A stretch of DNA of 64,000 nt from Botryllus schlosseri (taxonomy: Eukaryota). Both the position numbers and the translations under genes were made by a program. Positions 2,044 through 31,444 of the stretch are shown piece after piece. The stretch covers positions 37,202,001 to 37,266,000 of the forward strand of contig CM119372.1 in assembly GCA_051294905.1 (NCBI GenBank). Reading direction: 5' to 3'. Each line of letters begins with the position of its first letter. The first letter of the stretch is position 1. The notes below the pieces were generated by a model. The model was not told the origin of the DNA and ran no database searches. It saw only the letters and a list, made by a program, of their open reading frames with translations.

Positions 2044-2206
2044 AAGCTACAGCAACCGATACATTTCATGATGCGAATATTGGCGATGGCGGATTTGTTT
2101 TCCGCATGTATCGAAGGTATTGTGAGTATCACTACGACTGCGACTGGTTACTTTTACTTGGGACAGACCGGTTGTAACATCCAGGGATTTCTGATTGGGA
2201 CCTGCG
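2044..2206 (+). CDS. Opsin exon: ICL1-TM2-EL1-start of TM3
   Basis: tag|AAG...TGCG|gtaaga; KLQQPIHFMMRILAMADLFSACIEGIVSITTTATGYFYLGQTGCNIQGFLIGTC(G). Confidence 0.93.
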
Positions 2207-5200
2207 GTAAGATTCAATATTTTCATGTCATTATCCTAATAGTTTTAATAATGAGGATATCATATGCTGGGATGGCGCAATGAGTAATACTGGCCAATAA
2301 AATTTCACTAATTTTTTAACGAGAACGTGGTTATATCATATGTATTTACTCCGCTGATCCCAAATCTGCCGTATTGCACTTCACGTTTCCAACACAATAT
2401 CAAATTTAGGTGTTCCGAAAATGCTTTAAAATCACCAAGTAGCTAATATTCATGGCAATTCAAATGTCTAGCATTTGGTTTCCTTTGTATAGATGGGTCT
2501 TGGGTCATCGCCGAAAAAACATCCGACAGCAGTATCAATACAGAGCAGAGATCTCAAACTCAAATGTGCTCGCGGGCCAGCTTTCCAGTTTCGACGACGC
2601 CGCGGGCCGCGGCATTTATAGGGGTATTCTATGTCTTTCCAAGTAGGCCTTATTCGGCGGGAATGAATTGTCCTATTGTAAGTGAGCCGATCCAGCAAAC
2701 TGACAGTGAACACCTATCGTCAAATATGATTTACTCTTGTATAAATTCAAGCCTGGCACGAAAAGAATCATCACATTTATAACTATTTGAATAGAATTGT
2801 TGTTGTACTTGCATTGTTGGGATCAAGTCACTACCTTCGAGTCACGAGTCATCTCGAGTCATTGCGGATTTTGACTCGAGTCAAGTCAAGTCAATCGATT
2901 TTCAAAGGTGACTCGAGTCAAGTCAAGTCACTCGTTTTCTGGAGGTGACTCGAGTCAAGTCGAGTCAAGTCAAGTCAAGTCACGAGTCAAGTCACAATTC
3001 AAGTCAAATTGAATTTTCAATGTATGAGGGATGATTCAAAGTCATTACACTTTGCTAGCTGTGTGAAAGACAGATTAATTGATCAATGCTGATCATTTAT
3101 CTTGAATCAAATAACGAATATCTAGTTAAATATACCTGCGAAAAGACGTTGTATCACTCACGCACACGTAGAACTGTTAATAAAATACGTGAGTAACTGG
3201 ACAGTCACATGCTACAGTCAGTTATTATCAGCCAAAATATAGGACATAATCAACATCTATACATCCGTGAGTAAATAAACGCCCCAACTATATTTGTTTG
3301 ATTTAAATCATACATAAAGGTTGGTAAAGGTGAGCATTGCGCAACGTAAGCATTGATCCGTCTAAGAAACAGAGACACATTGCTATTTAGAGTAATCTTC
3401 TACTACTATTACTACTACTACGACAACGCAAGCTGCGATACTTTAGTTTGCGGTCTATTTATTTGTGATCTAACAATCGAGGATCAGTGTATCGTACGAT
3501 CAGTGAATGACTGGTTGCTCTCACAAGTGACACCGGCGTATCTCGACCAATCCGAACATGCACAAGATACAGTGATTTATTCGACACCGTTTACTTGATG
3601 ACTTGAAATTGACTCGTAAATTTTGCTCCGAGTCACGAGTCAATGCGCATTTTTGAAGCTTCGAGTCAAGTCAAGTCAAGTCATTTTTCCAAAGTGACTC
3701 GAGTCAAGTCAAGTCATACGAAAAAGTTGACTCGAGTCTGACTCGAGTCTAGTCATGACTCGAGTCATCCCAACACTGTGTACTTGATATATATTAATTA
3801 TAAGATGTAGACACCATATGAGCGGACAAATGTATGATGGCATCATAAAAGCTATCGGGTTATAATTTTGCAGCGACCATGAATATTTTGAATTTAACAG
3901 ATTGATAATAGAGACTGCATGGTCTGATATCAAAACATTTTTAGGTTGAGCATTGTAATTCCAATCCAGGATTCGGGTATACTTTTGATAAGTAGGCTAT
4001 TATTCTCGTGGCCAAATATCTTCAAATATAGGAGCAGAAAAAAATATAAATATATTATAAATATATTATTGAATGTGTCCTAGTGATTGAAATGTCGTAA
4101 CGCCGAACGGGCCATTGTTGTTACATCGTTGGCGCGTAACACTGCGGTACTCGGTACTTGTAAGAGCCCTTAATAACATGGTTTAGCGACCAAAGATGTA
4201 ACTGACAGATTGCCAATGGTTGCCATAACTTCGTGCTTAGTTTGCGAAATACCAAGCTGCGACCTTCTGATCTATTACTATTCCCCTGATACGCGATTAG
4301 TTTGTTGCGTCCATGGTTCTAACAAATTCACGGCATTCCGAGTCACTCCGAGTCCACTCGAGTCATTTTCATTTTGCCATCGAGTTAGCCCGAGTCTGAG
4401 TAATTCTAAGAAAGGTCGCGTCCAAGTCCAACTCACAAATTTCAGTCACGAATCGTCTAAGGGTCCGGTTTTGTCATCATGAACTGGAAATGGGGCGAAA
4501 TAGTGAATCTTCCTCTGCATGGTAGCGTTTGTAATTGATGTGATAGTAAAGTTTGATGAATAGTTTCAGTCTTTCGGGGCAAGTTAAGAAGGAATTTTGA
4601 CTTTATAACCTGGAAAGATATATGTGACATTTATACATTGTCAAAGTATTAAAAATCTAAAATGTCGTCGCGGGCCGCACAAAATGCTCTGGCGGGCCGC
4701 GTGTTTGAGACCTCTGATAAAGAGGTTGTAGGATAAAGCGATGGTACATTGTTCTCGGTTTAGCTCCGTCACGCCTGACTTTGGGTATAGTGATAGATAG
4801 TCCAACATTCAATTCGTGAAAGTAGGATTGTCCTATTTTGCATACGGTCACAGGAAATTTCGGAATTGCGCACACCAATTTAACGGCAGAAAAGGTGAAG
4901 GAATATTGTAGGTAGACGATTGAAATCCTCTATAGTACAAGAAAGCCTCACTATATTCATCATTATATAGCAGTACTTTTCAACCTGTGTGGCGGTTCGC
5001 ACTAGTGCGAATGAAAAAAATTTCAGTGCGAATGATACGAGCGTGGTGCGAATGGTGCGAACGGCAAGCGTGGTGCGAATGGTGCGAATGAAAAATTCGG
5101 ATGAGTGCGAATTGAAATTGTCCATATTTCTCACTTTTTTCAACGTGGAATAATTCAAATAAACACGATATTAAGTATAGTGAGCCCGTAAATTTTGTCG

Positions 5201-8200
5201 TTTGGAAGCAATTCTAAAAACTTGTTGGTAGCTAGGCTTTTCTAGTTCACAAGTGAGGAAAGCTCCCGATGCGCGCATGTTGCAAAGTTTGAGATAATAT
5301 TTCCGCGCGAGAGGACCACGTCACTGCATGGAAAAAAGAAGGAGTTCAATCGGTATCAGTTGCTCACTTGCTCGGAAACATCCACCGTGTATGGATATTG
5401 TATACGGACCTTGTAGGAATATAGGTAATAGTAGCTGATGCCAGTGTTGACATTTGGCATATTTGAATGCAAGGTTTTGGAATTTTGGCACACATTCATG
5501 TTGGCAGCAGAATTTAGCGTTTCTTCAACTATAACAATTAGCCCATTAGATCTATAACAAGTGTTGTTTACTTGTGTACCTAACCAAGGATTAGAGGCTG
5601 TTATAAATAAAATTAGTGTAAGCCCATTAGTGTCTTACGTCCAATGAATATTCATCATGCATCACATCGAATTATTAAGTCACTGGGCAGTTTATCTATA
5701 CTAACCAGTGCAATGGCCTGTTTGTATTGCGAACTCCAATATTTAGGCGTATCCACGCTTTCCTGTTCTTGGACTGATGATCTCAGGCCAAGTCTAGATC
5801 GTGAAGGCATAGGCCTATATATAACATATTGGTGATTCCACTAAATTTGATACATCCTGATCCATACGAAAAGTCTGCCTAGTTCGTGTTCGTACCGCCT
5901 TTGTACTACAAACTTTGTAATACTACGAACTCTACCGGTTTAGCTTGAGCAGAGGAGCAGTGAGCACCCTCTGCAGAGCAAAATCAAATCCACCAAGCCG
6001 TGTGTCTTACGATATTCCTTATGCAGCCTAATTTAAGCTTAATTAGACTGTTGAACCTTATCACTCTGTATGTATAAGGATATGTGGGATAGTAAAGATA
6101 ATTTGGCATTATTTCAGTCAGTTTTCCAATATTGTACGATTGACCTAAGAGCCATCCTGCCGTTACTGCCCGGGCCGATATAACTGTGTGTTAATCATGA
6201 ATCTTATACGAGTAATAATTATTCAAGAAGGTGAAAGTGTTGGCTTTGACAACACAAGGATGCCGAACGTTGTTATTGAAAGATATGTTGATTTATGTAC
6301 TGCATAGATAAGAAGTGAATGAAGCCTAAGCTTGTCCATAAACAACAGTCATAAATTACTCGGATTGTGTGGGTTTGTATAGCCATGCAATCTTGATTTT
6401 AACGCCCACAGTACCATCCTATCGTCTAACATTAGGTTTACCATATTTTGGAATCGCGAAAGGAGGACTAAAATAAAAAAAATAGTTCAACTTTTGTTCG
6501 GCTCCCAAAATACCCTCCGGAGCGTCACTTCGGTGCTGATTTACGGCATCTCAGTTGAATTTTGCTATAAATTGGACCAAAATTCCTAAAAAGAGGACAA
6601 ATCTCGAAAAGGAGGACATTTAGGCGTCCTCGGAGAACATTTTCAAAAACCTGAAAAAGGAAGACAAATCCTCCTTTAAGCTTCCAAGGAAATCACTGCA
6701 CGATACCTCCGGAAAATTCCACAAACTTCTTGAGAACAACGGGAGTGCGATATCTGTGATTTTTCTGCTGCAGTGATTTTAATGCTTGATTAGTCAATAA
6801 GACGATACGCTAAATGCAAAATAATGAAGCTCTGTACCTCCAAGAAGCTCTTCGAATACAAAAGTGATAAGTTTCTACATTTTTATTTCGTTTACTAAAT
6901 TTCGGCTGACTGGAACGAATGAAATTATTTTTCAAAAAAAAGTGCGAATGGAGCTCAAAAAGGTTGAAAAGCACTGTTATATAGAATCGACATTCGTAGA
7001 GACCCCGGAGCAACGTTGAAATTAGTCTTATCTAACACCAAACTCAACGCAATCTCTCAAAAGTTTCTGGTTGTCGGATGCGTCTTACATATCAATATAT
7101 ACACGACGATCTCAATGGTGGAATATGAAACAAATATCGAGAGCATCGCCAATAAACTTTACGTGGCAATGGCAGGAGCCAATATGTCCTCACTCAGAAT
7201 TCGTCGCAACAGTCCATCCGTATGAATCAATCTGAAATCAATTCGCTGCAGCGCCTTGGTCCACAGGAAACTCATCGCGGCCTAATACATTTGAGTCCCG
7301 TATGCTACACTGTAAAAATTATTCTTGTAAAATTGCTTGTAACGAGCTTGCAAATGCTCGATGCAATCTCGAGGCAGCTTGTAACTGCAAAATGCAAGCA
7401 CATAACTAGCTGTCATAGGACGGTGCTTGTAAATTGTTTATATTTTGTGCAAGAAGAATTATCAAACGCAGCAGTCCGAACTCACTCCAGACTCGTGACA
7501 GACACGATGCCATACCAGACAGGATAACACACCCCGGACATAGACACGATGTCCGAGTGTCAACACAGTCCGCATACATCCCCCGACATGCCCCAGACAT
7601 GTCCCAGATATGATGTGCGCGTTCGACAACGCAGTTCGAACCCACTCCAGACATGCCTCGGACATGATGTCCGAGTGTCAACGCAGTTCGAACGCACCCC
7701 AGACATGTCCCAGACATCCTGTTCGAGTGTCAACACAGTTCGAACACACACCTCTGACATGATGTTTGATTGGCAACGCAGTCCGAACCTTTCTCCAGAC
7801 ATGCTTCAGACATGATGTCCGAGCGTCAATACAGGCCCAACACACCCCAGACATGCCTTGGACATGTCCCAGACATGATGTTCAAGTGTCATAACGCAGC
7901 ACGAACACATCCCCAACATGATGTTCGATAGCCAACACGGTCTGAACCTATTCATGCATCAGCTATGATGTCTGAGTGTCAACGAAGTTCGAACACCCCC
8001 TCCCCCCCCCCCCGACATGCACTGACATGTCTCGGACATGATGCTCGAGTGTCAACCGCGGTCCGCATACACCCTGAAATGATGCGTAATTGACAACGTG
8101 TTCCGAACTTATCTCCAGACATGCCTCAGACATGATGTCTGAGTGTTAATTCAGGCCGAACACACCCCAGACATGCCCTAAATATGTCCCAGGCATGATG

Positions 8201-11200
8201 CTCAAGTGTCATCACGCAGTCCGAACACATCCCTAACATGAAGTTCGATAGACAACGCAGTCCAAACTTACTCCAGTCATGCCTCGGACATGATGTCCGA
8301 GTGTTAACACAGTTCGAACACACCCCTGACAAGCCCCTAGATAATATGTGTGAGTTGAAGCGCTGTTCAAACACACCCAGACATCATATCTGGCGATAGG
8401 AAAATGCACAAGACACAAAATACGGTGCGATTATTATGTTGGTATTTTTCATTATCATCTTTATGTTCATTATATTTCAATATGAACTCCCGCATTCTGT
8501 TTGTAAAAATATATCACTGAGCGTTTCGGTTGAGCGGTTTAGAAAAAAGGCGCGAGAACAAGACGAGGAAGGATTTGGATTTCGATTTGAAAGAATCGCA
8601 ATTAATGATTTTTATCTGATTCAAAAACAATGGATATCGATTTTAGCTTAACTTTAAGATGAATATAAGTAGAAATGGACTTGAAATGTCTCATAACTTT
8701 ACATTCCAATGTGTTATTTGGATCAAATGCCTACTTTTTTCTGATTTGGACTTGGATTAGAATCTCGAATTCGGAACAGGATTTGGATTTTACAATATTC
8801 TAGCTGATCATCTCGGCGAGAATGGCCGATGGCGAACCAACCAGTTTTGCAGCGGTGCACGTTTCTTTCGTGTTGGTAAATAATTGATCAATCTTTGTGA
8901 TTTGATATATTTAAGGTTATTGAAATAGTCTTGGTTTCTATGGCTAACGTTCAAGCACAGTTGAAGTTGAAGGTGGCCTATGGTTACCGTTCAAAAGTGT
9001 TTAGAGTAAACTCTATCAGAAGTGAAAACTGCTGTATTACACAAATTTCCTGACAATGCTAACATTGAGAACTATGACAAAGATTTTGGCTGGGCTGAAT
9101 TTGATTGTGAAGTTGAACTACGCAGTGGCGATATGTTGGAATTTAGTGAACAGAAAAATTCAGGTAATTTAATGTTATGGTTATACGCGCTATAAGATTA
9201 CTGATATTTTTGTCTTGCAGAGACTTCGAAAGTGACAGATTTGCTTGGTGCTGGTGTTCGTAATTGAAATTGCACCAGTAACGTGGATGTATCATTAACT
9301 GAAGCGCAGACGAATGGTAAGGTTTTTTTGCCACCAACTGTATGACAGTGTATGACGGTGTATAGCAGTGTTTCCAAATATATTCTTACATAATGTGTAT
9401 GTGACATTCACAAATTCAAATTATAGACAACGCCATTGCTGTCAGTGTGATTACCAGTGAACTCGATACTTGGTGAATTCGGCCCCGCGAACTCGGCCCT
9501 TGGGAAATTTTGTAATAAATTGTATTAACAACTATTAATATGAATTAATAAACTACTAACATTATCATCGAGTGATTTGTCAATGTTGTACGTCAGGGCA
9601 TGCGTAGATCACGCAGTGCCGGCGTGATTAGATCACAGATTGCGTAAAGTTTGTGGGGCCGAATTCACCAAGTGTCGAGTTCACTGGCAACCGTCAGTGT
9701 TCATATTCTTGATTATAGTATAAGTATAGCTTTCTAGTTCCGGCGTTAAAATGTAGGCGTTTTGCACAACGTCATCTTACCGCCGAATACTTTGAGAAGG
9801 GAGAAGTCAATTAACATTTAGATTTTTCGGGATCAGTGCGACAGTTACATTCGATTATTATATACTATTTTAAATTTATCTCCCCCGCCCAGTAGCCTTG
9901 TTTGTAGCTAGCGCTTCCTTTGTGATCCAGAATTTTGTCTCATAAGTGACATTGTAATTGCAGGAGATACGTGCAGTGGTCTGCGAAATTCAGAACGATG
10001 CGTTTATGCTTCATCAATCATGATTGATCTGGAGCCCTCTACATCTATAACTGATGTACGAGCAGCCCTCGATGCAAGTAACCAGGAAGTTCTGGTCTTC
10101 TTGCTAACGAAGTATGAAATTGCTATTTTTGTGGCACATCAGTCGGGAACCACTGATTCATATCATCAATATAAAATTTCAGGTCGGAGAATCTTCGAAC
10201 AATGACGAAAGTGGGGCTGAACATAAGTCTTTCATATTATCGGAATCAAGTTCATCTAGCCCAGCCAAGGAAACGCTGATGAAAGCAATGAAAACCACTT
10301 TCAAAAGGCGTCGGTTTGACAGAAGCCTGCAACATGCAAATCGGGCAAGAAGCGATATCATAGGTTAGATTTCTGCTTGACGATAACTGATAAGGTTTCA
10401 GCTATTGGAGGGAATGAAGCTGATTAACAATGGTCTAGATCAGGGGTTCTCAGCCCTTTTTTGGCCGTGGCCCATTTTCCAGTTTGAAAATGTGCTGTGG
10501 CCCACCTGTTATCTAGAGTCATGATCCTGATCAATGCGTGGTAATCGACAGCGCCGATATGCCTATTCCTCTAAAATATGCGCATTTTTCTATCTCTGAT
10601 GATATAGACTTCCCGGGACATGAAATCGTGCCAGGCCCAACAAAATTTTTCAAGTTGAGTAAATATAATCCAACAAACGACCAACGAAATAATCTTGGGA
10701 TCATTCGAGCTCCCCAAAATGGGGGTTTGGGTGTGGTAGTTAGGGCCCTGGTAAATCATAGGCTAAAACTCTCAGTAGATAATTTTCGTCCGCTGCTCCA
10801 TTTGCGTCTCAAAACACAATGATCAGATCCCAGCATCCGCTGTGTGATTGGGACTTATGTTCCATTATTGTGGGGAATAATATAATCATTCTGGGCAAGC
10901 GTCGAACAATTCATTGGTGAACGGGGTACTACAGAGAAGTGGAGAAAGATTATCAATATACAAGCTGTACAATGTAAATTGTATGTCTTGTACCAAAACA
11001 ACTGAAGTTGCGATGTCAGAATATTCAATCCAATGATACCATCAATTCATAAGAATTTGTGTACTTACAGATTCTGCAGATAATTGGAAGGTCGGTATAC
11101 CTGCAACGAATCCTGTGGCAAATTCTTGGTTATAAACCAGGTTCGTACCAAGTACATATCGACACAGCATTACTATAAAGTTTACTTTACTGCGCTGATA

Positions 11201-14200
11201 ATAGGCTTACAGCTAGATATGTCAGTATAAGTCAGGGGCGGCCTACCCGCGGCCCGCGAGAAGATTTAGTGTTGCCTGCGAGGTAATTCTCGAAATTAGT
11301 TGTAACATCAGGTAAAATTGCAAGGCCAACCAAAATTTCATTAGTCTGACCGCAAAATTTGATAATGACTCAAAAATGATCAGTTCCGACGCATTGGCAT
11401 AGTTAAGGTACAGCCACATTTATCGCAGATCTTCATATATGGCCTTGAAGTAGAATATTTCGCAGCAGATTTATTTGACTTGAAGTTTTTCTTGGCACTT
11501 TGCATGATTTATTGTCACTCGACTTCTTGCATTTAGTATTGGAGCCCTCCTGAAAATTATAAATACGCGTAATTTGCAGAATCGTGTCGTTCAACATGCT
11601 ACATGTGCTTGCAGCTAGATCGTCGGCGATGAAACTTCGCACAAAATGATAGAGGCATGTTCACCGAAACCTTCGATATTGCTATGTCTAAACGCTGAAT
11701 TATCCTGTCCTTGCCAAATGAGCCCAGTGGTATACAAAAGCAACCCCAATATATGCAAGTAACATATTTATTGATCGAATTCATTCGTTATCTTTGAAAA
11801 AGTTTCACGCCTAGCGCAGCCAGGACATGAATGCACAGTTGCACTTCGCACACATAGTTTTCATGACATAATTGTATGAAAATTAAAGCGTAGTAATGTA
11901 AGCATTGTTTTCAACGTTACCTAATTCGGTACGCTCCTATCGGACGACTAAAAAAAGGTCATCAACATTCATGTGGCCCGCGTAATTGTTCCTAAATCTC
12001 GTGTGTCCCTTTGGCCGAAAAGGTTTGCCACCTCTGGTATAATTGCTGTCATAGTCATCATTTTGACCTAATACATCAGCCATTATTACTCTGAAATTAT
12101 ATAGCTATCATAGGCTATATAATTTCATACTTTCCTTGCCTTTCAGTATACAGTTATGTGCTCTCTTTTTTCAGGATAATTCAGAACCAACCCAACCCAA
12201 TCATACATCTTGACACTCAAGAGATCAAGTGGACGGTGCACTTCGACGGGCTAGTGATAAATGACGTGGTAGATTTCTCATATGCTTTAGCTTTGTGTCA
12301 CTGCATTGGGTATTCAATATCCAGTTCGCACGCGGTATGAATATTACTCTACATTTCTTGTCCATCCGCATTGCAAGAATGAAAGGGCTGCGTATGCCGT
12401 CTGCAGTCGCTTCAATGGGTGATAAAAATTGATGTGCAGTTTTGAAATTCATTTGATCATTGATATACAAATTGGTAAGTTATGAAGTAGTTTTGCTTTT
12501 TGGGGTGCTAAAGTAGATTTTGCCTCAAGTGATTATGTTTTCAGCATACTTCATTACTTGACAGTTTTGATGCTGCAAAGTATAAATCGGTATGGAATAG
12601 GTTTGTACTGGACCAAATAATTTACTTTCAAAACTACATGAGTTCTTGTCAAACAATTCATCTTCAGCATGCTGTCTTCAAGCTGCACTATTGTGGAATA
12701 AATTTAGTTGTAACGCTCATGAGCTTGCCTTTACACATTTTTAATATTATTGCTTCTTGCATGAATATTCGAGTTAGCGTGCTGGGTCTGCTGCAGGCCA
12801 AGTCATGCAAATATTGTCTTTACACAATTGCTTTTTCTAGTGCTGCTGTTTATTGTCCATCTGTGCTTGAGCTGTATATTGCCTGCTGATCAGCTGCGGT
12901 TAATTGGATGTAAATAAATGAGTTTTTTGCTATGTATTTGCGAACAATCATGGCCACCGAATACATTGGGTCTTTCTGGTTATAGGTACTGCCAGTCCAG
13001 GTGCAAGATTTAGGTATACTGAGAGAGATAAAAGAGAGATTTACAAGCTATGGGCTTGTATTGAGTTAACAAGAATTAGCCTGTAAGCTTGTAATGAGTT
13101 ACAAGAAAATGCCTGTAAGCTTGTAATCGAGTCTAGCATGTTTTTTCTTGTTTATTACAAGAATAATTTTTACAGTGTAGCAGAGAATCGGTAGTAATGG
13201 ATAAGTCCTTATGCGATAACCGCATGTGTGATGGTATGATGTCGCCAATGCCGATACACTAATACATTTGATATGGCTAAATTTGTTTGCGTACGGAAGT
13301 TGACATCGCCGCTAGGTAAACAATTTCACCATTCTGGGCTGTTGCTACGTGGTGATTAGGCATTGTCTGCCTGCTTAAATTCCGTCAAACATGTAGCAGA
13401 ATTATCAACCTTTCTCATACCACGAAAATAACGCACCAAATGACGTCAATTGACATATCTATTCATTTAAAGAGAAGGTAAGATCCCGTTGCCAAGAAAT
13501 GTTCGGGATAAGGTTAAATCAGTTTCAAATTTCAACAGAAATATTGCTGTTGCGCTGGGTCTAATGGTTTGAAATCATAAGTATATTTTAATGATAAAGA
13601 ATGTTTTTTATTCATAGTAACTTATATGAAATGTTGAGTACACGTTAAGATGCATGCTGTGTAAGATGAAACAGTGGCGTAAATCTATTGCACTCAACGA
13701 CGTTAATTTCAGTCGCCCGACTGAGTTGTTCATGGATTAAATTTTATTTATTTTTAAACACTGTCCATCGAATCAGCAGCTCTTCGTGGCTCGAAATTTT
13801 GTACGGAGCCACTTAGTGATATCGATTTGCTTCGTTGGTAACGCTAATAATTTGAGAAATGAATATGTACATACTTGACAACATTACACGCCCCCACATC
13901 TGAAACTTCAAAGTCCATACCCAATCTTCTACAACAGGGATGTCGAACTCCACTTGGGTCACGGGCTGGATTCAAATATTTCGATCGCTCGCAGGCCCTA
14001 CGTGTCAATTCATTCCAGAATATTACATCAAATCCAAACCTTCGTGTTTTACTGGAATGCCATATCATCAAGGCTATGCAGTAGGGGAGATGTGGTACCG
14101 ATGGATCACTGGGACCGAAAATACTTCGAAAATTCTCTATGTTAATTCCATGATTACACTCCGTGAACTTGTCTACAATTGCATGCTGGCAAAATCTTTC

Positions 14201-17200
14201 CTCACATACAAAAAAATTCGACGTGCGCGAGCTATGGGGTCTCTCACAGATGATTTTTGTTTTGGGGGGTCTTAACTAAATTTAGATCGACATATACATT
14301 TTTCTTTCTAACCTTCAACACGAACAAACCAGCAATCATTTTTATTGTGATGTGTAGGGCTTGTATCAGGCTATATAATGGGACCTATTATTTTTTCAGT
14401 ACTTCCCTTTAGTGGACTTTTTTTCGATTCATGTATAAAATTCATAGGGTGGGGACCGATGATACAATAGCCAAATCAAGCAAAATAATCAACCATACTA
14501 ATCATGAAACAAATGAAACATGCCTACGTACAGAAAATCTTTATCTAATAATTGCATATGATGTTTTATCGCTATAACGAGGTATTTGGAAGTCACACTG
14601 TCGATTTACGGGCAATATGTATGTACCCACAAATTTATAAGTTCGAGCCTAAATCGAAACGTGATTTTATGACAACATTTGAGTTAATATTTATTCTATT
14701 TTTTGACAGTTGCGACCAAACATTCTTCGTTGGCTTGCTGCAGCCTAGATTATAATACTGAGCAAGAAAAGTAGTCACATTTTAGTTTTTTAGGGTATAT
14801 GTGTCATAGGTCCCCGGGTCGTGTGTCATTGGACCCACCGGGTGGGGACCGATGACACGTTCGAGCAACAAATTTTGAACGTCCATAAATATTTTTTAAA
14901 AAGACGGATATTCATGTTTATGTGCGCGATAGGTAGAGCTTGTATCAAAGTGCTGAGCCAACAAAAGATCTGCTGTTTTCGACTGAACATTTCGGGGCCA
15001 GTGATCATTTTCCAATTTTTGATCCATCGGTACCACATCTCCCCTATGCATATTAGTCCTGTACATTTTAATACTGGTCATATCGCTTTATCTAGCAACA
15101 ACGTTATTCGCAAACAACGGGATTGACAACAATACGATGATTGACCGATTGAATACAAATTTATTTCGAATTTTCTTCAAGCTGGCATTCTGACTTTACA
15201 GAATCAAAAATGTATAGTTACCTTCACTTTGCACTGCATTAAAAATCACGAGAATCATATCTACAAGTCCATCATACGGTTGAACCTGATCAGGCTTTGA
15301 AGAACCGTGTGATACAGGTATCTTGGTCAAATCTTAGTTGGGATATACAATTGTACTTTTACTTTCTGAATAAAACCCTTTAACATTTGTAATGAAGCAT
15401 GTAAAGTGCATAATATGGGAACAGTAAAATAAATTAAAAACTTTTAGCAACTTGTTCTTACCACATGTTTTTGCATGTTCGTCTTCTTAAATGCTCAGCA
15501 CTGAAGCAATATCCTCATCTGGTCATTATACAAACTACTTTTCGAAGATATAGGCTAAGATCATCGCGATGATTTCCCCATCATCGATATCTGTCTTGAC
15601 TTAAACATTTGTCTCCGAGTCACGAGGTATTCTTCATTTCGCATACGTTGAATCCGAATAAATACGACTAACTGTTTCCATTTTCCCAGGAATTGCTAAT
15701 TTGACATTGATATGTCTCATATCGATATCAAGATATCTCGTTGTGTGTCAACCATTCGGATTTTATGAGGTAAAGAAAAGTCATGCACAATACGGTAAGA
15801 TTTACTATCATCGATTAAGAATTGTTGCAAATATAGATTATGTTCCAACAACATTTTGGAAAATTTGAACCCGACCAAATCTAACGCAGCAGTGACAAAT
15901 GTTTGAGACACTCAACCTAGAGTTTCACATCGACTATTCAACATATTCACTAAATTTCTGATTTTGGTGATGTCATCATTGTGCTTGTTGTTTGGTGTGG
16001 AAACGTTGATAATTTATTTTCTACTCAGAGTAAGGCAATGGGTCCCCACTTTTTCCGTCTCGTGGACCACTCCGGCTTATATTTGAGCATAAATCCTCCC
16101 TCAGCAGAAAGCAGTCCGGTGAATAAATGAGGTCGTGCTCATGCACAATGTGCACAAATTGCACATACAGTGTACACACATGTAGGCCTACCCTTTCCGT
16201 AACGAACCAATTGTGGTATTCCCGATTCACTAGCGTTTCCGGATTAGGTAACGGTCAATCCGGACATATCGATTTATGTTCATCGCCAACATCAAATTTT
16301 ACCAAGATCGGTGTGGTATGTATAAGTGACTAGTCGCACGAAGTACGAAAAAGTTTTCAAGGTAAATGAATAAATTTGGTCAATAAAATCGGTACCATTA
16401 ACTTGATAAAACTTTCACGTAGAGCTGATGTGTCTTCGTGAGTTTAGTGCACCGATTCCATCCGGTTAAGAATATCCATGAAGTTATCTCAAGCTAGCTT
16501 TAAATGAAGCCATTTGCTAAGTTGAAGCTTTTTGTTATTTCGTGACCCCCGGTAATGATTGTCGGTATACGTAAGATATATTGAACTCACTCGCACGTAC
16601 CAGATCAAACTGAAAGAAAAACTCTTTCGTGAGATGAATGCCATTCCTAATTCGCATCTCTTCACTTCGTAAACTATTTTTCTCGGCGCGTAGCATTTTT
16701 TACCAAGGGACGCAGATTTCAAGGGCATCCAACGTCACCTGGATGTATCATTATCGACAGTTTCGGCGTCGGCGATTAGGGGTTAAAGTGTTATCTATGC
16801 CGATCCTTAAAGGAGTAGTTTGATGAGACGCGGGCTTACCGAAACTTTTCTACTGAAATTGCATGCGCCTAAGGGTCTCCAACCGGTGGGTTACACACCT
16901 CTACACTGAAGCATCAGAACGGTTTCAAGCGATACGAAGAACATACTGTACTCTCATTATTGTGAATATACAGTTTGACCCGATTCTGTAAATTATGGGT
17001 ATTTTTCGTTTTTTTTTTAAATTTATATATTTCTGAAGAAGGGTACCCATAAAAAAGATGAAACACAGGGACAATAATTCACGCGAAGCGCGCAATAAAC
17101 TTCAATGTCGATTCAATCTGATCAAAACTATCCTATTTTATTATAATTCGTGAAACTTTACAAAATGTTGAAGTGGTGCATAGCGTTTTTCGCCTCCCCT

Positions 17201-20200
17201 GATTACGCCAATGCTGTGGTTAAGAAAATATTGAAAAATTAAAAAAAATAGGTCGTTACTTTTCGTCGTGGCAGCATAGGTAATTGCTGAATAAAAATAA
17301 AACAAGTTCGCGTGCCACGACTTTGAGTTGAATCATGAAACTTGGCCTGTTTTTTCAAGATCCGGCAGATGTCAACTTGAAAGAAGTGTTAACTTTCACT
17401 AGTGACCTAGTTGTTATGTTTTCTCTGATTTGGAGCATTTGGGTCGAAAAGCTGTGGCGGACCACTAAAATCGTCTCTCGAACTGTACTTCATTTCCGCG
17501 CACCTGAAGTATAGGTTTTAAAAAGAAAAAGCAAGATTTCAAAGAGAATTCCAATATACTTCTAGTTAAAATCAGTTAAAATGAACACACGCTTGGCGAG
17601 AACTAATTTCATAGTTTATAGTTCCGCCTTGGATATGATTTTTGAAATTGAAAAAATGAAATTTATGAATATAGGTATACCGCCTCGTAATATCCCAAAG
17701 CCAGATATCCCCTTAAAATTATGAAATTGCTCCTTACGAGGAAAATCTCTTTTTTCAATAAGACGAGTGTAACATCATCATGGGATGGGAATAGGTTAAC
17801 TGATGACGTCTTTTTCGAACGAAAAACTACATCGGTCCGGACCTTACAAGGCTTTAACATATGGCAAGCACATTCGATTTATTTATAACATCATTCGAAA
17901 ATATATTCTGGATATTCTGGAGTGGAAGATATGTTCGCCGAACCCAAATTTATACCCTTCGCGACCCCTACTTAGCATACTTTACTTGGTAAATATAGCA
18001 ACTGCACTTCGTTTTACATGTATCTCAAAACTAATTGTTGCGAATAACAGGTGTCGCCACCGCTTGGATATGGTCATTGTTTTGGAATGTCACTCAAGCA
18101 GTCAACGATGGATATGACCTGGAAGGAGTCGGAACACACTGCGCGCCGGTGTGGAAAACAGAGCAACCTCTGTCTAAAATACACTTGATTTTACTCGTCA
18201 GCTTTTGTTATTTCGGATTTCTCATCATATTGACGATATGCTATGCGAAGATATGGCTCGTGATGAGAAAGGTAATGCCCTGCGATAACAGTTTTCTGTC
18301 GTTGTGGTGTAGGCCTACTGCAATCGTGCAGGAAGCTGGATCTCCACGTTTCCGTATTTTAAATGCGATTTCACATTGTCAACATGCCATTTTTCACCTG
18401 TAATAATCGTCTTTAGTAACATGTTGAGACCCAGAAGACTGCGATACTCTAAACCATGGGTGGCAATTATTTTTCCAGGTGGACCAAATGAGAAGTAAAA
18501 AATATGCTTGTTGGCCGAGCCAGAAGTATAAACTGTATTTCGTGGCGTCTTTCATTTTTAAATAGACTATAGCGAATTACATTGTTAGCACAAGCTGCTA
18601 AGTCTACATAGTAAAATTAGGTTATAAGAAAGTGAGGGGTTAATTTGCCAAAAAAATACCATATATTCATTCAATGGCATTATTCCAAATCATATTAACC
18701 CCAGATCAATTTTTTTATGGAGACGTCAGAATGTATTTATGTGTATATTACAAAGCTGGTCTTGGTCCCGAGCTGTGTGTAGCTCGGTATGTAGCCCTGC
18801 TGTTTTGAGAGCTTAGCTATCACATGCCCTGAAATCCACGCTCTCTTAGCCTCAGGCAGCCTACTAGTGTCTGTATTATACAGCGTTTGTCATAACGTCG
18901 ATTCAAAATCTTGCGTTACTCACATGCAGTGATTGACTTGTACGACGTTATGACATGCAACATAAAATCACAGACCGAGTATTTCGCAATGTAACAATGC
19001 CAACAAACAATTTTGAACTATCTTGATACCGTTACATTTTACTTAACTGCTACGTCATGCGGAGCTATATTTGCATTGTTTTGAATCCAGATTTTACGAC
19101 CTGGCTACGAATTCACTGTACTGTGTAGGCCTACCTGTACAGCATGTACACAGATCAACGAGCAGGATTAAAAGTAAACTCATTACCGGCTCAGTTTATA
19201 CAGCATATGGTTTTAGTTGACACATTAGTATCCAAAAGTATGTTTTATGTTCTAAATTCCAGGCTGCTTTTCTCGGGCCAGTCGCAATCGCGGGGTTGCA
19301 CATTGCCCAGGTCCGCCAGAAATAATCGTGATGTGTTTCCATTGCGCAGAACCATTACAATAGTTGTATTGGTAATTACTATTTATAATATACAATCAAA
19401 CAAAAAAATCTCTCGGTATATTTTCCGGCATTCGTATGTTATATTAATTCGAGGATTTGTTTCATTTACCTAATTTTATGCCAGCGAGCTATCAAAATTT
19501 TCACTAATATTATTATGTAAGCTGTTTTAATTTCATCGTATCATGCTATCATATGCCTCGCGATGTTAGCTGCAACGGCAAAACTTTATCAAGTGAATGG
19601 ATCCTTGCTATAATTTCACCTGAACGCGAAACCAATACAAAGCAAACTAATGCATGTTGATCATTGAGTCCATATACCCACCACTAATAGTTAGCATAAA
19701 ATAAATTCATATCATGTTTCAAGCAGAACGTTTGGGACCTTTGATTTATATAAATTCATATAAATTATGAATTGTACGGTATATATCGCGAGCTCGGCGA
19801 GTACATTAGCATATTCAATTCAGGTTTGCCCCGCCGACATTGGGAACTTATCTAATGAAGATCCGCGCAAGTGGGCTACTTAGCTACTCTCGAGAGCGTA
19901 ATTCGTCGCTACAACCAATGGGAATTGAAATATTGGCCTCAATCATTTCGAGCAGCGATATATTCCAAACAGTCTCAAGTCAGCGAACTAGATATTGTTT
20001 GCTTTTTTCTTTATCGACAGAAATTACGCCCGTCTACGAGTGCACAGCATACCGAAAGAGAAGTTACCATAACTATTATCTACATCGTAGCTGGATTTTT
20101 AATCTGCTGGACTCCATACGTGGCTGTTTCCATACACAATCTCGCCCATTCAGGAAACAATGTAAGATATAGAAATCTGTGATGAAACCAAATTAATTCT

Positions 20201-21456
20201 GAACGATCTCCTTGAAGGCGCATCCGTATATGGAAACCGTATCGGTGTACGTGGCGAAAACATCAACTGTATTCAATCCGATAATTTATGCAATGAGAAA
20301 CAGTCAAGTATGAGATTCAATATTTCAAACTTTGAAAATCCACATGATGTGTTTTAGCCAGTTGTGGACAATGTCTATGAATGGTATCTATCTTTATGGA
20401 ATAGGCCTACTTTCTGAGTTTATGCACGAAGTGGTTTTTATTTTGCGGCAGACATCCTTCTCTCCAGTTTTTACGTCGAGCTACCTACTTTTCACGTTTT
20501 GGATCGGGTCAACGGACTGATTTCACCTAGACTGATTAGGATAGATCTGTGACGGTTCCTTCCTCGTCTATTCTGTGAATTACTTACTTGATCATTTATC
20601 GAACGCACCCTTTTCTACCTATTTTATGAAGTTTAGACGTTCCTGAAAGGTCTAGTTCTATTTACGCACATGGTAATTAGTCTCATTACGTTCACTTCTA
20701 TTTGAGTCGCTTATGGCACTAGTTTACGATCTCCCAAACATAAGCCGTCTCCATTATGACAAAATATGATACGGGCATTGGGAATTGAGATGCTTGCATT
20801 CTTAGTTCATATGTATAACTCGATATCTTGACTATAAATTCTTCGGTTGCCGGTGAACTGAATCCACTCACCCTGAATTAACCAAGGACAGTGTCAAAAC
20901 ACATAAGTACTTCTTAAAACTACGCCAAGTGGAAGTAGAATGTGAAACGCCGGAAGAGTACTAAAGAAGTTTCAAAATGCAGTTAAAAGGAAATGGCTAC
21001 ATGATTTTGGAATTATATTACATTTGGAATTATATTCAGTTTCCGTGATTCTGCACGCAACTTATGACAATTTCACACATAAAAGCTATGCAGAATTGTC
21101 ACGAAAGTACTTTGTAATTTTCAAATTCCAACGTCTGAAAACTAATGAATTTTTTCCGAATGAATGTTTAAGTAGAAATGGGTAAAAAAAAGATGCATGC
21201 AAAATCTATTCAAGTATGCTCCAAATTAGTGGGAGTAGGCTACTTCTTTATTCACCTCTATGCACCTCTGCTGAATCCTATAGGAATCGGGAAAGCTTTG
21301 GTGCGGGATTGTAAGCCTCCCAAGCTCCTATATCATCAACTGTGTATTGAGTCTAGTATCTAATCAATATTTTTGTCTTCGTGACAGATTCGCAGCGAAA
21401 TGATCGGGATCATGAAACCAAATGATGCGAAGGAAGAAGAGAATGAAATGATTTGA
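2044..21456 (+). CDS. Ciliary-type (parapinopsin/Ci-opsin-like) opsin, 5'-partial; exons 2044-2206, 15690-15794, 18051-18271, 20021-20161, 20218-20307, 21388-21456
   Basis: Six exons join in frame through canonical GT-AG introns (phases 1,1,0,0,0), giving 789 nt including stop. The product aligns almost gap-free to bovine rhodopsin 67-314: KLQQP..LAMADL..GYFYLGQTGCNIQGF / SRYLVVCQPFG / GYDLEGVGTHC / EREVT..FLICWTPY / YVAKTSTVFNPIIY..NSQ|IR. The K296 codon is at 20257-20259. No TM1 exon was found in the window. Confidence 0.93.
2546..4716. mobile_element. Non-autonomous hAT-type element (contains nested element)
   Basis: Ends cagagatctcaaac / gtttgagacctctg with gcgggcc subterminal motifs; TSD atacagag / ataaagag. 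Confidence 0.8.
2812..3778. mobile_element. hAT-type MITE with GACTCGAGTC/CAAGT subterminal repeats
   Basis: TIRs cattgttgggat / atcccaacactg; perfect TSD tgtacttg; same family as 43522-46213. Confidence 0.9.
7475..8390. repeat. Complex minisatellite (CAGACATG / ATGTCCGAGTGTCAAC / CGAACACACCCC modules)
   Basis: Roughly 15-20 imperfect 45-60 bp modules; explains the overlapping repetitive ORFs on both strands. Confidence 0.85.
9449..9692. mobile_element. Small MITE (Merlin- or MULE-like ends)
   Basis: About 38-bp TIRs gattaccagtgaactcgatacttggtgaattcggcccc / ggggccgaattcaccaagtgtcgagttcactggcaacc; 8-bp TSD gtcagtgt. Confidence 0.85.
11233..12036. mobile_element. hAT-type MITE nested in the CACTA element
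   Basis: Ends caggggcggcc / tttgccacctctg; TSD gtataagt / gtataatt; internally homologous to 39510-40373. Confidence 0.85.
14084..15044. mobile_element. TA-targeting MITE (Tc1/mariner-pogo-like)
   Basis: TIRs ggggagatgtggtaccgatggatca / tgatccatcggtaccacatctcccc flanked by TA; inverted sister copy at 43685-45495. Confidence 0.88.
15690..15794 (+). CDS. Opsin exon: TM3-ICL2 (absent from ORF track)
   Basis: ttttcccag|GA...TACG|gtaaga, 105 nt, phase 1-1; (G)IANLTLICLISISRYLVVCQPFGFYEVKKSHAQY(G). Confidence 0.92.
18051..18271 (+). CDS. Opsin exon: TM4-EL2-TM5
   Basis: aacag|GT...AAG|gtaatg; VATAWIWSLFWNVTQAVNDGYDLEGVGTHCAPVWKTEQPLSKIHLILLVSFCYFGFLIILTICYAKIWLVMRK. Confidence 0.93.
18455..19315. 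mobile_element. Degenerate hAT-type MITE
   Basis: Both ends homologous to the ends of the 37268-38579 element; TSD not preserved. Confidence 0.6.
20021..20161 (+). CDS. Opsin exon: ICL3-TM6
   Basis: Pyrimidine tract + cag|AAA...AAT|gtaaga; KLRPSTSAQHTEREVTITIIYIVAGFLICWTPYVAVSIHNLAHSGNN. Confidence 0.93.
20218..20307 (+). CDS. Opsin exon: TM7 with retinal-binding lysine and NPIIY
   Basis: Follows a 56-nt intron; AHPYMETVSVYVAKTSTVFNPIIYAMRNSQ|gtatga. Confidence 0.92.
21388..21456 (+). CDS. Opsin last coding exon (helix 8 and C-tail)
   Basis: ttttgtcttcgtgacag|ATT; IRSEMIGIMKPNDAKEEENEMI*; phase 0 matches the NSQ| donor and NxQ|(F/I)R matches the c-opsin pattern. Confidence 0.75.
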   Translation: MRSEMIGIMKPNDAKEEENEMI

Positions 21457-27084: not shown

Positions 27085-27830
27085 CATTGACATAAATCGA
27101 AGTAAGCCTCATGTATTTTCACGGTTATTCGCAAAATGATAACGAAAATTCGCATAAATGTGGGAGGGAGGCCCTCATCAATTCAAAGTAAGCTCTTTCA
27201 GCGGGTGCAGAAATTTAATGATAGACTGTTTACGGTACCATATTCGACATCAGTACATATATTTTCACGGTTATTCGCAAAATGATAACGAAAATTCGCA
27301 TGAATGTAAGGGGGGCGTCATAAAATCAAAGTAAGCTCTTTTAGCGGATGCAGAAATTTAATGATCGACTACTGTTTACGGTACTATATTCTACAAATGT
27401 AGGCAGTAGGCCTACATGTATTTTCACGGCTAATCGCAAAATCATAACTAAAATTTGCATAAATGTAGGAGGCCCCCCCTATAAAATCAAAGTAATCTCA
27501 TTTAGCGGGTGCAGAAATTTAATGATTGACTACTGTTTACGGTATTATATTCTACATAGTTACATGTATTTTCGCAGTTATTTGCAAAATGATAACATTC
27601 GCGTAAATGTAAGAGGGGGGGCCTTTAACTAATGGCAAAATGGATAGAGATCGTAAAATCGAAGTGAGCTCTTGCACCAAGTGCAGAAATTTAATGATCG
27701 ACAACTGCTTACGGTACCATATTCTACATTGGTGCATAGATTTTTGTGGTTATACGAAAAATGATAACTAAAAAATGTGGATTGATGATTGACCCCTCTT
27801 TACGGTACAATACCAATATTCTTAATGGAT
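27085..27830. repeat. Tandem array of about 150-bp unit, about 5 copies
   Basis: Recurrent tattttcacggttattcgcaaaatgataac...gtgcagaaatttaatga...tgtttacggtac near 27111, 27258, 27416, 27564 and 27736. Confidence 0.85.
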
Positions 27831-27984: not shown

Positions 27985-29961
27985 ACCCCAAAAGCCACCA
28001 CTGAGCCTACTCGTTCCCCAGCATGGATTACAATGTCATTTTGAGATAGGTTTATCAACATCACAGGCACCTCATTACATGTGGGATCGACCAACCCGGA
28101 CAACACACGCAAACCACGATTATCATACTGGCTCTCAAACACACGCGAAGATTCAACCACACCATATACTGTGAAATGGACGGCAACCAAGGCCCACTCA
28201 CTGCACCCATGACAGCTCTTTCACTCCACTTACGGACTATTATCTGTTTTTGAGTCATAACACCACAACAGGATACCGACAGCTGTTGCAATATAACATT
28301 TTGCCAATGCAAACTCATCATACCTTTACCCATGTACAGAACAGCATTATGCTTCTCCATATAATCACACCCTAGCAAGCCATACGGCGCACCCAAACCA
28401 GCAATCACAACCTCTTGTTGTGCACAAAAATCACCAATACGTAGGGTCAACACCACTGTGCCATATAGCTCCAAGGGGCCCACCAGAAGCAGTAGCAAAT
28501 GGGATATCACAAGGTTTCAAATCAGTTATATCATACAATCGAGTGTACAGATCATAGTCTAGGAAGGTACGGGGACTCTCTGAGTCTACCAAAAGTTTAG
28601 CCGATAGGCTGTCATTCACCGATGCAACGGTGTACCAGCTAGATGTGAGCCGAAGCGCACAAACAAAATTGATAAGTCTTTCCAAATCCTGGTCCATATC
28701 CATAAGAGCAGCGCCATCGGACCCACGGTCTGCTATGGCATGTTTAAAGAATTGCCCGATTGGTGGGGCTCATGTCCGCCGGTGACTGGCGGAACACCAT
28801 CTCTACTTCTATTGGGACACGAAACTAGAAGGTGACCCAACTGGCCACAGTTAGCACAACGGGAGTTTGGGCAGTTTTTGTGAATGTGTCCAGTCACTCC
28901 ACAGTTATGGCAAGGTCCATACCCAAACGTTACTCTTCTTCGGTAGGGGGGGGGGGGCTTCTAGGCCTACTAATCGGTAGTTGATTTCTGGCAGTCACTA
29001 GGTTGCTAACCAGGTCAATCAGCTTGTCAATTTTCGATTCTATCTCATTATCACGCTTGCCTACTGCAAGACGTTCAGCGCTATCTTTTGGTTGTAGGCC
29101 TACAGTAGCCACAACTGGTTTACTAGTTTCGAACAATTGACTGTTAGGCGGTCCATCAACAGAGAAATACAAATCCGCAGAAGCAACTAGTTCATCTAGG
29201 TTACTTGTTTTCATCAACGTAAGCTGTCGGAGAAGGTTAACATCACCAAGACCATTAATAAACTGCTGACACACAAACTCATCACGAGCTGCAGAATTCA
29301 TACGTGTAAAAGCCTTCAAGCTAAGCGTAGCCAGAACTGATGCGAATTCTGTTGGGGATTCTCCCAATTTCATCGTACGTTTGTTAAATTCAGTACGGCT
29401 CAAGGTTTCCATACCACATGGAATGTAGCGCTTCTGCAATTGGGCAATTACACGATCAATATCCCGACGGCAATCAGCCGACATTTGTGCAAGCACTTGC
29501 AAAGCGTTACCACGTAAGCTAGCATTAAGCCTAGCACAAGCAGTTTGTTTGTCCCATCCGTTGGCCAATGTCACCGCATCAAAATGGCATAAATAATCAC
29601 TAATGGGCATATTCACACCATCAAATGATTCCAGTTTAATAACACCAACAGCGGGTTTGGGCATGCTATTACTAGATGGAGTGGGGCGTACAGAATTGCT
29701 ACGAGTAACACGCACTTTATCATTTACATACTGTGGTTCTGGAGACATAACACCAGTTTTACTGTCAGTTATATCAACAAACTCGCCCATGTCACCATTA
29801 TCATTACTGTCAAACACACATGCACTCGCATTCGGTGCCGCAGACATACTCTCACCTCCGAAACTTTGTACAATGGTTAATACACGACTGAGGGTACTGT
29901 TTTGGGCTTCTACATGAACCGTTGTCATGGTCACTGGGTTGAAACAAAACATTGAGGTCAT
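27985..29961 (-). mobile_element. Truncated Ty3/Gypsy-like LTR retrotransposon: gag (two CCHC knuckles), protease and linker; RT/IN absent
   Basis: Gag ORF 29961-28930 (FDAVTLANGW..LRGNALQV..QFINGL). After a frameshift at the G12 run (28946-28957) it continues CHNCGVTGHIHKNC / CANCGQLGHLLVSC to a stop at 28733. Protease-like LLVDSESPRTFL and GLLGCDYM follow, then linker VPVMLINLSQNDIVIHAGERVG. Confidence 0.88.
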
Positions 29962-30052
29962 AAGTTAACATATTCAGAGTATCCGGATATCAATATGACC
30001 AACAGAGACAGACAGGCTTATACAAGAAATAATTCCTGCATAAAATAAAAAT

Positions 30053-31444
30053 ACAACGAACAACACATTCGTATTCGCTATTTATTCATTATAAGCTTTT
30101 GAACTGACCCTCGTCGGTAGTGGCCGTCAGTATAATACTGAGATTGCAATTCGAAATGTAAAGATGAAATAGGTAGTGTGACGTAAGAATGGTATAACAA
30201 CAACAACGAGAGAAATCACAAAACGAGAGCGTTAATCAAAAATGCAATTAGTGCAATACAAATAAGCTATATTATATTATTATATATTCTTTATTCACAG
30301 TAAAACTGGTAGATACACACATAATCCGGGGAGCAACCTGCCCCCAAAGGAAAATGGCGAGATTGGAGTAAATTTTTAAAATTTCAGTAATACATTCAAA
30401 TTGTTATTCCTATGCAATACACGGAGAAGTCAGATTACAGAATTGCAGCAGATGAAGAATTGGCAAGGGTTACAGTGCAGAGGTAGAGATGATTGAAGAT
30501 GAAGAATCGAAATTACAGAAATTATGCTGTGATTCACAAGTGTAATTTTAGTCCAGTGGTGCATTCAAGGCCTTCCGAAGAATGTGCACAGTGCCCAATA
30601 ATGTGATTTTCTGGATCATGTCGAATCGAACGTTACCCGGAATTTGTTGGATATGCCTCATGAGTTTTTTGCTCACGACCCCTGTAGCACCAATGACTAT
30701 CGGTACAATGTTTATTTTGCATCGCCACATTTTCTCACATTCCATTTTGAGGTCTGCGTATTTGGAGTATTTTTCTGATTCTTTTTGCAGTAGGTTGTGA
30801 TCAGCTGGGACAGCCAGTTCAATGAATAAGTATTCTCTTTTCTTTTTTAGTTTGACGATTATATCCGGGCGGTTGCTCCTGATTTCGCGGTCAGTTATAA
30901 CTGGTACATCCCACAAAATTTTTACTTGCTCGTTTTCTGTCACTGGTGCTGGGCTGTAATCATACCAATTTTTTGTCGAAGTGGTGATGTTAAAATGTTT
31001 GCATAATTCAAGATGAATGTAGTGACCAATCCTATTGTGTCTCCATGTGTATTCGGTAGCTGCAAGTGCACCACAGCCGGACATGAGATGTGCTACAGTT
31101 TCATTTTGGTTGTGGCACATTCTGCATTTGCCGTCCGTGTTTTGCTTCAGAATTCTTTTGCGATAGTATTTTGTAGGAAGCGATTGGTCTTGTGCTGCGA
31201 AAATGAATCCTTATTATATATTATTATTATATATTATTATTATATAGCCAGAGACGCAACACTAATGAAATACACGGAGAGAATAGAGTCGGTCCTTTTG
31301 CCGACAAAGAATCGGTTGCTCGAGTTTTATTATAGTCGATTCGAGAACCTTTAAATGGAACAGACTACGTCCACGAGCAAGAATTGAAAATCTGTTATCG
31401 TTATACAATTTTGTACACTCTGGATGCGTAAGAAGATGCTGACC
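30053..31444 (-). mobile_element. Penelope-like element 3' fragment (GIY-YIG C-terminus plus 3' UTR), interrupted by a Dong/R4 insertion
   Basis: SARGQHLLTHPECTKLYNDNRFSILARGRSLFHLKVLESTIIKLEQPILCRQKDRLYSLRVFH* (31444-31262). The 3' UTR resumes at 30270-30053, shown by colinearity with the uninterrupted copy at 32885-33172. Confidence 0.82.
30289..31212 (-). mobile_element. 5'-truncated R4/Dong-clade non-LTR retrotransposon (CCHC knuckle plus restriction-like endonuclease)
   Basis: GFIFAAQDQSLPT..CRMCHNQNETVAHLMSGC..RHN..ILWD..RPDII..IELAVP..K.SKY..IVPIVIGATG; AATAAA near the 3' end; TAA-type microsatellite on both sides. Confidence 0.9.

Follow-up and report, generated by a model that had tools for sequence, protein, structure and literature searches.

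The site of the Schiff-base counterion in an opsin determines visible sensitivity, bistability and the efficiency of G-protein activation, and the move of the counterion from Glu181 to Glu113 is the textbook step toward vertebrate vision. Tunicates are the sister group of vertebrates. Ci-opsin1 of the tunicate Ciona is treated as an intermediate of this 181-to-113 move (PMC9923458), and the experimentally confirmed counterion sites are given as 94, 113 and 181, to which a 2025 eLife study adds chloride (PMC12401545). Here we describe an opsin gene of the ascidian Botryllus schlosseri, most of which lies in a stretch of 64,000 nucleotides of contig CM119372.1 (assembly GCA_051294905.1; G000:C2:37202001-37266000; hereafter the window, whose own numbering is used unless a contig is named). 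The gene carries Gln at site 113 and Glu at site 90, and it shares both with a tandem paralogue, with which it forms what we call the Glu90 pair. We suggest that in this pair the counterion may have moved a second time, from helix 3 to helix 2.

An intact opsin gene in seven exons

Spliced from the DNA, the gene consists of seven collinear exons on the plus strand with a single open frame of 323 codons. All seven have GT-AG borders and matching phases, and so many ordered exons on one strand, so bordered and phased and sharing one open frame, lie far beyond what chance would produce. Six of them stand inside the window; exon 1 (G000:C2:37197257-37197439; 61 residues, starting MAVASNET) lies 4.6 kb upstream of it, and its ATG is the first downstream of an in-frame stop. 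Exon 2 (2044..2206; translation KLQQPIHF...NIQGFLIGTC, borders ag / gtaag) covers bovine sites 67-120 and the first base of 121, from helix 2 to the start of helix 3; exon 3 (15690-15794) covers sites 121-155, with the end of helix 3 and the second cytoplasmic loop; exon 4 (18051-18271) covers sites 156-232, with helix 4, the second extracellular loop and helix 5; exon 5 (20021-20161) encodes the third cytoplasmic loop and helix 6, with its CWTPY motif; and exon 6 (20218-20307) covers sites 283-312, with helix 7 and NPIIY. The last exon (21388-21456) adds 22 residues, IRSEMIGIMKPNDAKEEENEMI, then TGA, and provides helix 8 and a very short tail; it begins IRSE, a form of the IR[KRS]E start common to all five opsin genes of this genome for which we built models.

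The introns fall at sites 66/67, 120/121 (phase 1), 155/156, 232/233, 282/283 and 312/313, and those at 120/121, 232/233 and 312/313 occupy what we take to be the positions of vertebrate rhodopsin introns 1, 3 and 4. All six positions are common to the opsin paralogues modelled, and the intron between exons 5 and 6 (20162..20217), of 56 nt, stands at the same place in every one of them. The 13.5-kb second intron contains a tandem array of 52-base units (7591-7866, 5.4 copies). Exons 1 and 7 were located by comparing paralogues of the same genome; tblastn of the library matches against the window recovered neither, and a first-exon candidate within the window, at ~1660-1760, was rejected on account of a hydrophobic stretch that is too short and a wrong Asn55-to-Lys67 spacing. 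The original prediction, made from the letters of the window, had placed the gene at 2044..20307; the exons of that span are real, but exon 3 had gone unlisted and exons 1 and 7 lie beyond it.

The identity of the gene follows from exon-by-exon matches, for which sites are given in the native bovine rhodopsin numbering of 1f88_A. The gap-free alignment to bovine rhodopsin that had been proposed for exon 2 was borne out over residues 67-117 (E = 9.5e-7 to 1f88_A; HMMER, 177,635 PDB sequences), and the top-scoring bovine rhodopsin chains for this exon were 4bey_A, with Asp at 90, and 2x72_A, with Gln at 113. Cone opsins were the best structure matches of exon 4 (E = 1.2e-4), and exon 6 aligned without gaps to bovine 285-312, which fixes Lys296 and site 288. 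Four of the five exon translations tested matched Pfam 7tm_1, in the consecutive segments 14-68, 71-95, 107-182 and 193-228 of the 260-position profile and with E-values from 5e-5 to 3e-3 (exon 2, 3.6e-4; exon 3, 2.6e-3; exon 5, 5.2e-5), each score being under the whole-protein cut-off because single exons are pieces; the 30-residue exon with Lys296 matched no Pfam family. Library matches of the opsin exons were rhodopsin- and VA-like opsins. By its sequence the gene encodes an opsin of the ciliary type and belongs to the vertebrate visual/non-visual group, which tunicates and vertebrates have in common (PMC11893379), and the c-type assignment first made for it agrees with bovine rhodopsin and cone opsins as the best solved-structure matches.

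Translation and alignment place all six residues on which the original prediction was built at the codons it had assigned to them: Glu90 (GAA 2113-2115) and Gln113 (CAG 2182-2184) in exon 2, Glu181 (GAA 18122-18124) and His186 (CAC 18137-18139) in exon 4, and Glu288 (GAA 20233-20235) and Lys296 (AAA 20257-20259) in exon 6. The GAA at 18122-18124 is assigned to site 181 because it stands six residues ahead of the disulfide Cys187 (TGC 18140-18142); Cys110 is at 2173-2175. The hallmarks of a retinal opsin are present, namely Lys296, Cys110/Cys187, CWxPY, NPxxY, Asn55 and Asp83. Glu113, which is typical though not universal in the vertebrate visual/non-visual group, is replaced by Gln, and the E/DRY motif at the end of helix 3 reads Ser-Arg-Tyr (15728-15736), with Arg135 and Tyr136 kept. 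This SRY is found in all five modelled opsin paralogues, the canonical Gly90/Glu113 genes included; the whole family lacks the acidic residue by which receptor activation is normally held in check.

We also note some features of the Glu90 pair away from the retinal pocket. At the end of helix 4, both genes have Asn-Val-Thr at sites 168-170 (region 18086-18094 of the window) in place of the usual Pro-Pro or Thr-Pro, which creates a potential N-glycosylation motif. The tails of the pair, encoded at 21388-21456 in this gene and at G000:C2:37175146-37175232 in the paralogue, are very short, 22 and 28 residues past site 312, with one or two Ser each (one in this gene) and neither Thr nor Cys, in contrast to the longer, Ser/Thr-rich tails of the canonical paralogues; this suggests weak or no phosphorylation-dependent shut-off.

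Paralogues, selection and direction of change

A search of the 495-Mb genome assembly with exon 2 gave seven matches from 10 scored candidates: two with Glu90 and Gln113, three with Gly90 and Glu113, one with Gly90 and Tyr113, and one weak. With exon 4 there were 20 matches, the best five of which (48-100% identity) fall in the same five genes and the sixth (36%) in the Tyr113 gene. Full models were built for five genes. This gene (323 aa) and its tandem paralogue (332 aa), which lies ~50 kb upstream on the same strand (C2:37152165-37175232), both have Glu90, Gln113, Glu181, His186 and Lys296, and differ at site 288, which is Glu here and Lys in the paralogue. The gene on contig 16 (346 aa), the gene on contig 8 (353 aa) and a broken copy of the latter on the minus strand of C2 (C2:37131826-37142589) all have Gly90, Glu113, Glu181, Asn186, Gly288 and Lys296. 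At the level of sequence, then, the pair represents an intact opsin with exactly two conserved carboxylates near the Schiff base, Glu90 and Glu181.

In the broken copy, exon 4 contains an in-frame TAG, the acceptor of exon 5 is lost (TAG-to-TAA) and the donor that follows exon 2 is GC. The copy is 92% identical in protein to the contig 8 gene, with a synonymous divergence (dS) of 0.14, and stands head-to-head with the Glu90 paralogue, upstream of the window; it is a segmental duplication, since its non-coding flanks also resemble the contig-8 locus. The more distant Tyr113 opsin (G000:C16:14467981-14472070) has Gly90, Tyr113, Glu181 and Ser186 and the same gene structure; its Lys296 exon was not found, and its exon 2 is nearly identical to a library fragment, P0007. 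Ahead of the two Glu90 genes on G000:C2 there are two short collinear conserved blocks, of 34 bases at 82% and 28 bases at 79%, which lie 57-139 bases ahead of the start codon in this gene and 41-147 bases ahead of it in the paralogue and may be shared promoter elements.

Outside this genome the combination was met once. An exhaustive HMMER search of 1.84 billion representative proteins with exon 2 (threshold E <= 0.001) matched 45 proteins, whose residues at sites 90 and 113 are Gly/Glu in 40, Ala/Glu in two, Gln/Glu in one, Gly/Tyr in one and Glu/Gln in one. The sole Glu90/Gln113 match, P0005, is a 66-residue open frame on a 941-base contig; it shares 43 of 53 residues with this gene and 37 of 53 with the tandem paralogue, and is probably the counterpart of this gene in another ascidian. 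The protein collections searched contained no annotated protein that covers the full length of the gene, a word-index search limited to longer proteins returned nothing for exon 4, exon 2 or an exon of a canonical paralogue, and when metagenome contigs were scanned with the three Glu90 exons in alignment, none of the 114 pattern matches was confirmed. The joint retention of Glu90 and Gln113 in relatives, proposed at the outset as a check on the prediction, is thus seen both in the 68%-identical, constrained paralogue and in the P0005 fragment.

The pair is under purifying selection, as judged from coding-sequence divergence. Its two genes are 68% identical, with a dS of 0.63, a nonsynonymous divergence (dN) of 0.19 and a dN/dS of 0.295 (bootstrap 95% range 0.21-0.40); none of 2000 replicates reached 1, the maximum being 0.61 (Fisher p ~1e-14). 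The two genes have drifted apart synonymously at the codons for Gln113 (CAG/CAA) and His186 (CAC/CAT), and both use GAA for Glu90.

For the direction of change, we used a maximum-likelihood tree of nine rows and 227 columns, comprising five of the opsin genes of this genome together with four vertebrate opsin fragments (a rhodopsin, a long-wave cone opsin and two VA-like opsins); the pseudogene and the exon-2-only matches were left out, and the tree has no Opn3/TMT or invertebrate outgroup. The tunicate genes form a clade against the four vertebrate opsins (support 99/97), within which the Tyr113 gene branches first and the Glu90 pair (98/98) has the two intact Gly90/Glu113 genes tested as its sister group (93/95). 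By parsimony, Gly90 and Glu113 are ancestral, and G90E, E113Q and N186H arose on the stem leading to the pair; a single base change from the canonical codon accounts for each (GGA to GAA, GAA to CAA and AAT to CAT). Among the sites that we take to make up the retinal pocket, the pair also shows fixed differences from the canonical genes at sites 188, 208 and 294, and has Ile at site 89 against Leu/Phe. The grouping with Glu113 paralogues of the same genome, together with the six shared introns, argues for an independent, tunicate-specific origin of Gln113.

The position of the counterion

Since Glu113 was lost and Glu90 gained on the same branch, and both changes are held by selection, the change looks like a relocation from helix 3 to helix 2, and the Glu90 pattern is that expected if the negative charge had moved from 113 to 90. 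We propose, at about even confidence, that the Schiff-base counterion of the pair has so moved, with Glu181 retained. Retinal would be bound at Lys296, and its protonated Schiff base would be stabilised mainly by the carboxylate of Glu90 on helix 2, which would stand in for the counterion lost from helix 3, Glu113; Glu181, in the second extracellular loop, would join the network as its second member, in a role that His186 may modulate. That a pigment forms at all, how its Schiff base is protonated and which carboxylate acts as its counterion are what we infer here. Glu288, which had been singled out at first as a pocket feature of interest, is unlikely to be part of such a mechanism because it is Lys in the paralogue.

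The arrangement would be a natural version of the situation engineered in rhodopsin G90D/E113Q. In bovine rhodopsin, Asp90 can reportedly replace Glu113 as counterion, according to the work of Rao, Cohen and Oprian in 1994 and later Fourier-transform infrared (FTIR) work. Glu or Asp at 90, native or introduced, is listed among the possible counterion positions, and the change A90E is said to bring about partial protonation of a coral ultraviolet (UV) opsin (bioRxiv 10.64898/2026.07.01.735937), while Drosophila Rh7 is described as becoming a normal 450-nm pigment through the change K90E (PMC5544684). A vertebrate opsin with Gln113 and Glu181, the Q113-bistable (QB) opsin, is described as UV-absorbing (~370 nm) and bistable (PMC11893379); Glu181 alone is therefore no guarantee of a protonated Schiff base. 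Ser186 is described as linking Glu181 to the Schiff base in other opsins (PMC6513861), and we speculate that His186, at the same position, may weaken or rewire Glu181. The more specific proposal, that Glu90 is the main dark-state counterion of the pair with His186 damping or pairing with Glu181, we put forward only tentatively. If it is true, site 90 would become the fourth natural amino-acid counterion site after 181, 113 and 94, the displacement from 113 to 90 would be a second independent one within the opsin group from which vertebrate visual pigments arose, and G90D, a mutation that causes night blindness in humans, would have its counterpart in nature.

Several observations weigh against a relocation. 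The ancestral counterion, Glu181, is kept in all paralogues, and parietopsin, which pairs Gln113 with Glu181, is visible-sensitive and said to rely on Glu181 (PMC11893379), so that Glu90 need not be the counterion. The SRY motif and a very short tail nearly free of Ser and Thr are unusual for a signalling opsin, and constraint on the pair (dN/dS ~0.30) is looser than on the two intact canonical genes (0.12). The stem of the pair is long, at 0.38 changes per column, and three changes on it are for that reason not strong statistics by themselves; the nine-row tree, moreover, is without Ciona opsins, parietopsin, QB opsin or parapinopsin. The idea of a counterion at site 90 with which the analysis began is hence strengthened in part, by conservation and by the derived state on the branch that lost Glu113, and is in part left with a live rival in Glu181.

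That rival, the main one, is an arrangement like that of parietopsin, in which Glu181 alone is the counterion, Glu90 is protonated or serves spectral tuning only, and His186 adjusts the Glu181 network. We regard it as possible, although we would not expect it. The invariance of Glu181 in all five paralogues speaks for it, as do parietopsin and QB opsin, both of which are described as pairing Gln113 with conserved Glu181 at the ancestral counterion position (PMC11893379), and in Ci-opsin1 of Ciona the residues Glu113 and Glu181 are described as acting in synergy (PMC9923458), which would mean that Glu181 is already active in tunicate opsins. What this explanation does not account for is the gain of Glu at site 90, normally Gly or Ala, on the very branch that lost Glu113, nor the retention of that Glu in both paralogues and in P0005. 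A buried carboxylate beside the Schiff base, furthermore, is said usually to alter protonation (bioRxiv 10.64898/2026.07.01.735937; PMC5544684).

It is improbable, in our view, that the pair encodes a UV-sensitive bistable pigment, in which the Schiff base would be unprotonated in the dark, as in QB opsin or lamprey parapinopsin, and Glu90 and/or Glu181 would serve the visible photoproduct only. The ~370-nm, bistable QB opsin, with the same Gln113 and Glu181 (PMC11893379), offers a precedent, and a tail with almost no phosphorylation sites fits shut-off by light rather than by arrestin, but Glu introduced at 90 is reported to have moved two UV pigments toward the visible (bioRxiv 10.64898/2026.07.01.735937; PMC5544684), and with two carboxylates so close to the Schiff base an unprotonated state becomes less likely. 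Finally, the looser constraint, the SRY in place of E/DRY and the lack of an annotated full-length protein in the collections searched could be taken to mean that the pair is not photoreceptive, being decaying duplicates or receptors of another role in which Glu90 and Gln113 have no photochemical meaning, but this is very hard to credit for two genes that have intact frames and all splice sites, a dN/dS whose upper bootstrap bound is 0.40, Lys296 and the other retinal-pocket hallmarks, and an SRY that is a family trait shared with canonical paralogues, and that look different from the true pseudogene of the cluster, with its in-frame TAG, lost acceptor and GC donor.

The relocation of the counterion to Glu90 remains the reading that we favour. 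Whatever the role of each carboxylate, a pair of genes that lost Glu113, gained Glu90 and has kept this state under selection is a natural test of site 90 as a host for the counterion. The pair places the disease mutation G90D in a wild-type setting and is a possible new scaffold for optogenetic tuning, and it may reveal a mode of tuning of vision proteins so far unconfirmed in nature.

Surroundings of the gene and comparison with known opsins

Downstream of the opsin gene, the window contains a tandem array (27110-27618; 146-161-base units, ~3.4 copies) and a 512-codon open frame on the plus strand (34683-36221) which, by its hAT transposase domains (DUF4371, E 7e-14; hAT dimerisation, E 3e-7), is a transposon. 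Two long open frames of 344 and 220 codons lie on the minus strand at 28930-29964 and 30548-31210; the shorter has a weak match to PF15518, the N-terminus of the bunyavirus L protein (E 4.4e-4; 20.7 bits against a cut-off of 27), and could be either an insert of viral origin or a match by chance. A frame on the minus strand at 62784-63269, with a weak RVT_1 reverse-transcriptase match under the cut-off (E 9.7e-5), is probably a retroelement fragment.

Among described opsins, Ci-opsin1 of Ciona (Kusakabe 2001, Kojima 2017; via PMC11893379 and PMC9923458) is a tunicate member of the same group in which Glu181 is likewise kept. As far as its description in these sources allows a comparison, the canonical paralogues of the present genome, with Gly90, Glu113 and Glu181, match it; the gene described here differs, in that Ci-opsin1 has Glu113 and is described as using it with Glu181 (PMC9923458), and this gene has Gln113 and Glu90. 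In the literature searched, which covered few subscription journals, we found no natural site-90 counterion and no description of a tunicate Gln113 opsin.

By residues, parietopsin and QB opsin come close, being ciliary-type opsins with Gln113 and conserved Glu181, as here (PMC11893379). They are vertebrate subfamilies, however, and this gene groups with opsins of its own genome, in a tree that holds no parietopsin or QB rows.

Natural Glu90 has precedents of another kind. Aedes aegypti Rh7 is described as having it, and there, as in Drosophila Rh7 K90E, Glu90 accompanies visible rather than UV absorbance; these arthropod opsins differ in being rhabdomeric-type and Gq-coupled, with Glu181 taken as the counterion (PMC5544684). 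The original prediction, which knew of no natural example, is accordingly too broad for the residue, given Aedes Rh7 (PMC5544684), and holds for the function to the extent that site 90 is not among the confirmed natural counterions (PMC12401545). The box-jellyfish opsin with Glu94 (Gerrard 2018, PMC6004467; cited in PMC12401545) shows a natural helix-2 counterion one turn from site 90, and helix 2 can hence host a counterion; it differs from the present case in the site itself, 94 rather than 90, in belonging to the cnidopsin group and in being without Glu181.

The nearest equivalents of the site-90 arrangement itself are the night-blindness mutant rhodopsin G90D (PDB 4bey) and the double mutant G90D/E113Q, in which site 90, next to the Schiff base, is acidic as it is in this gene. 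Those are disease or engineered systems, and the residue is Asp; in Botryllus schlosseri it is a natural Glu, fixed in two constrained genes and accompanied by His186.

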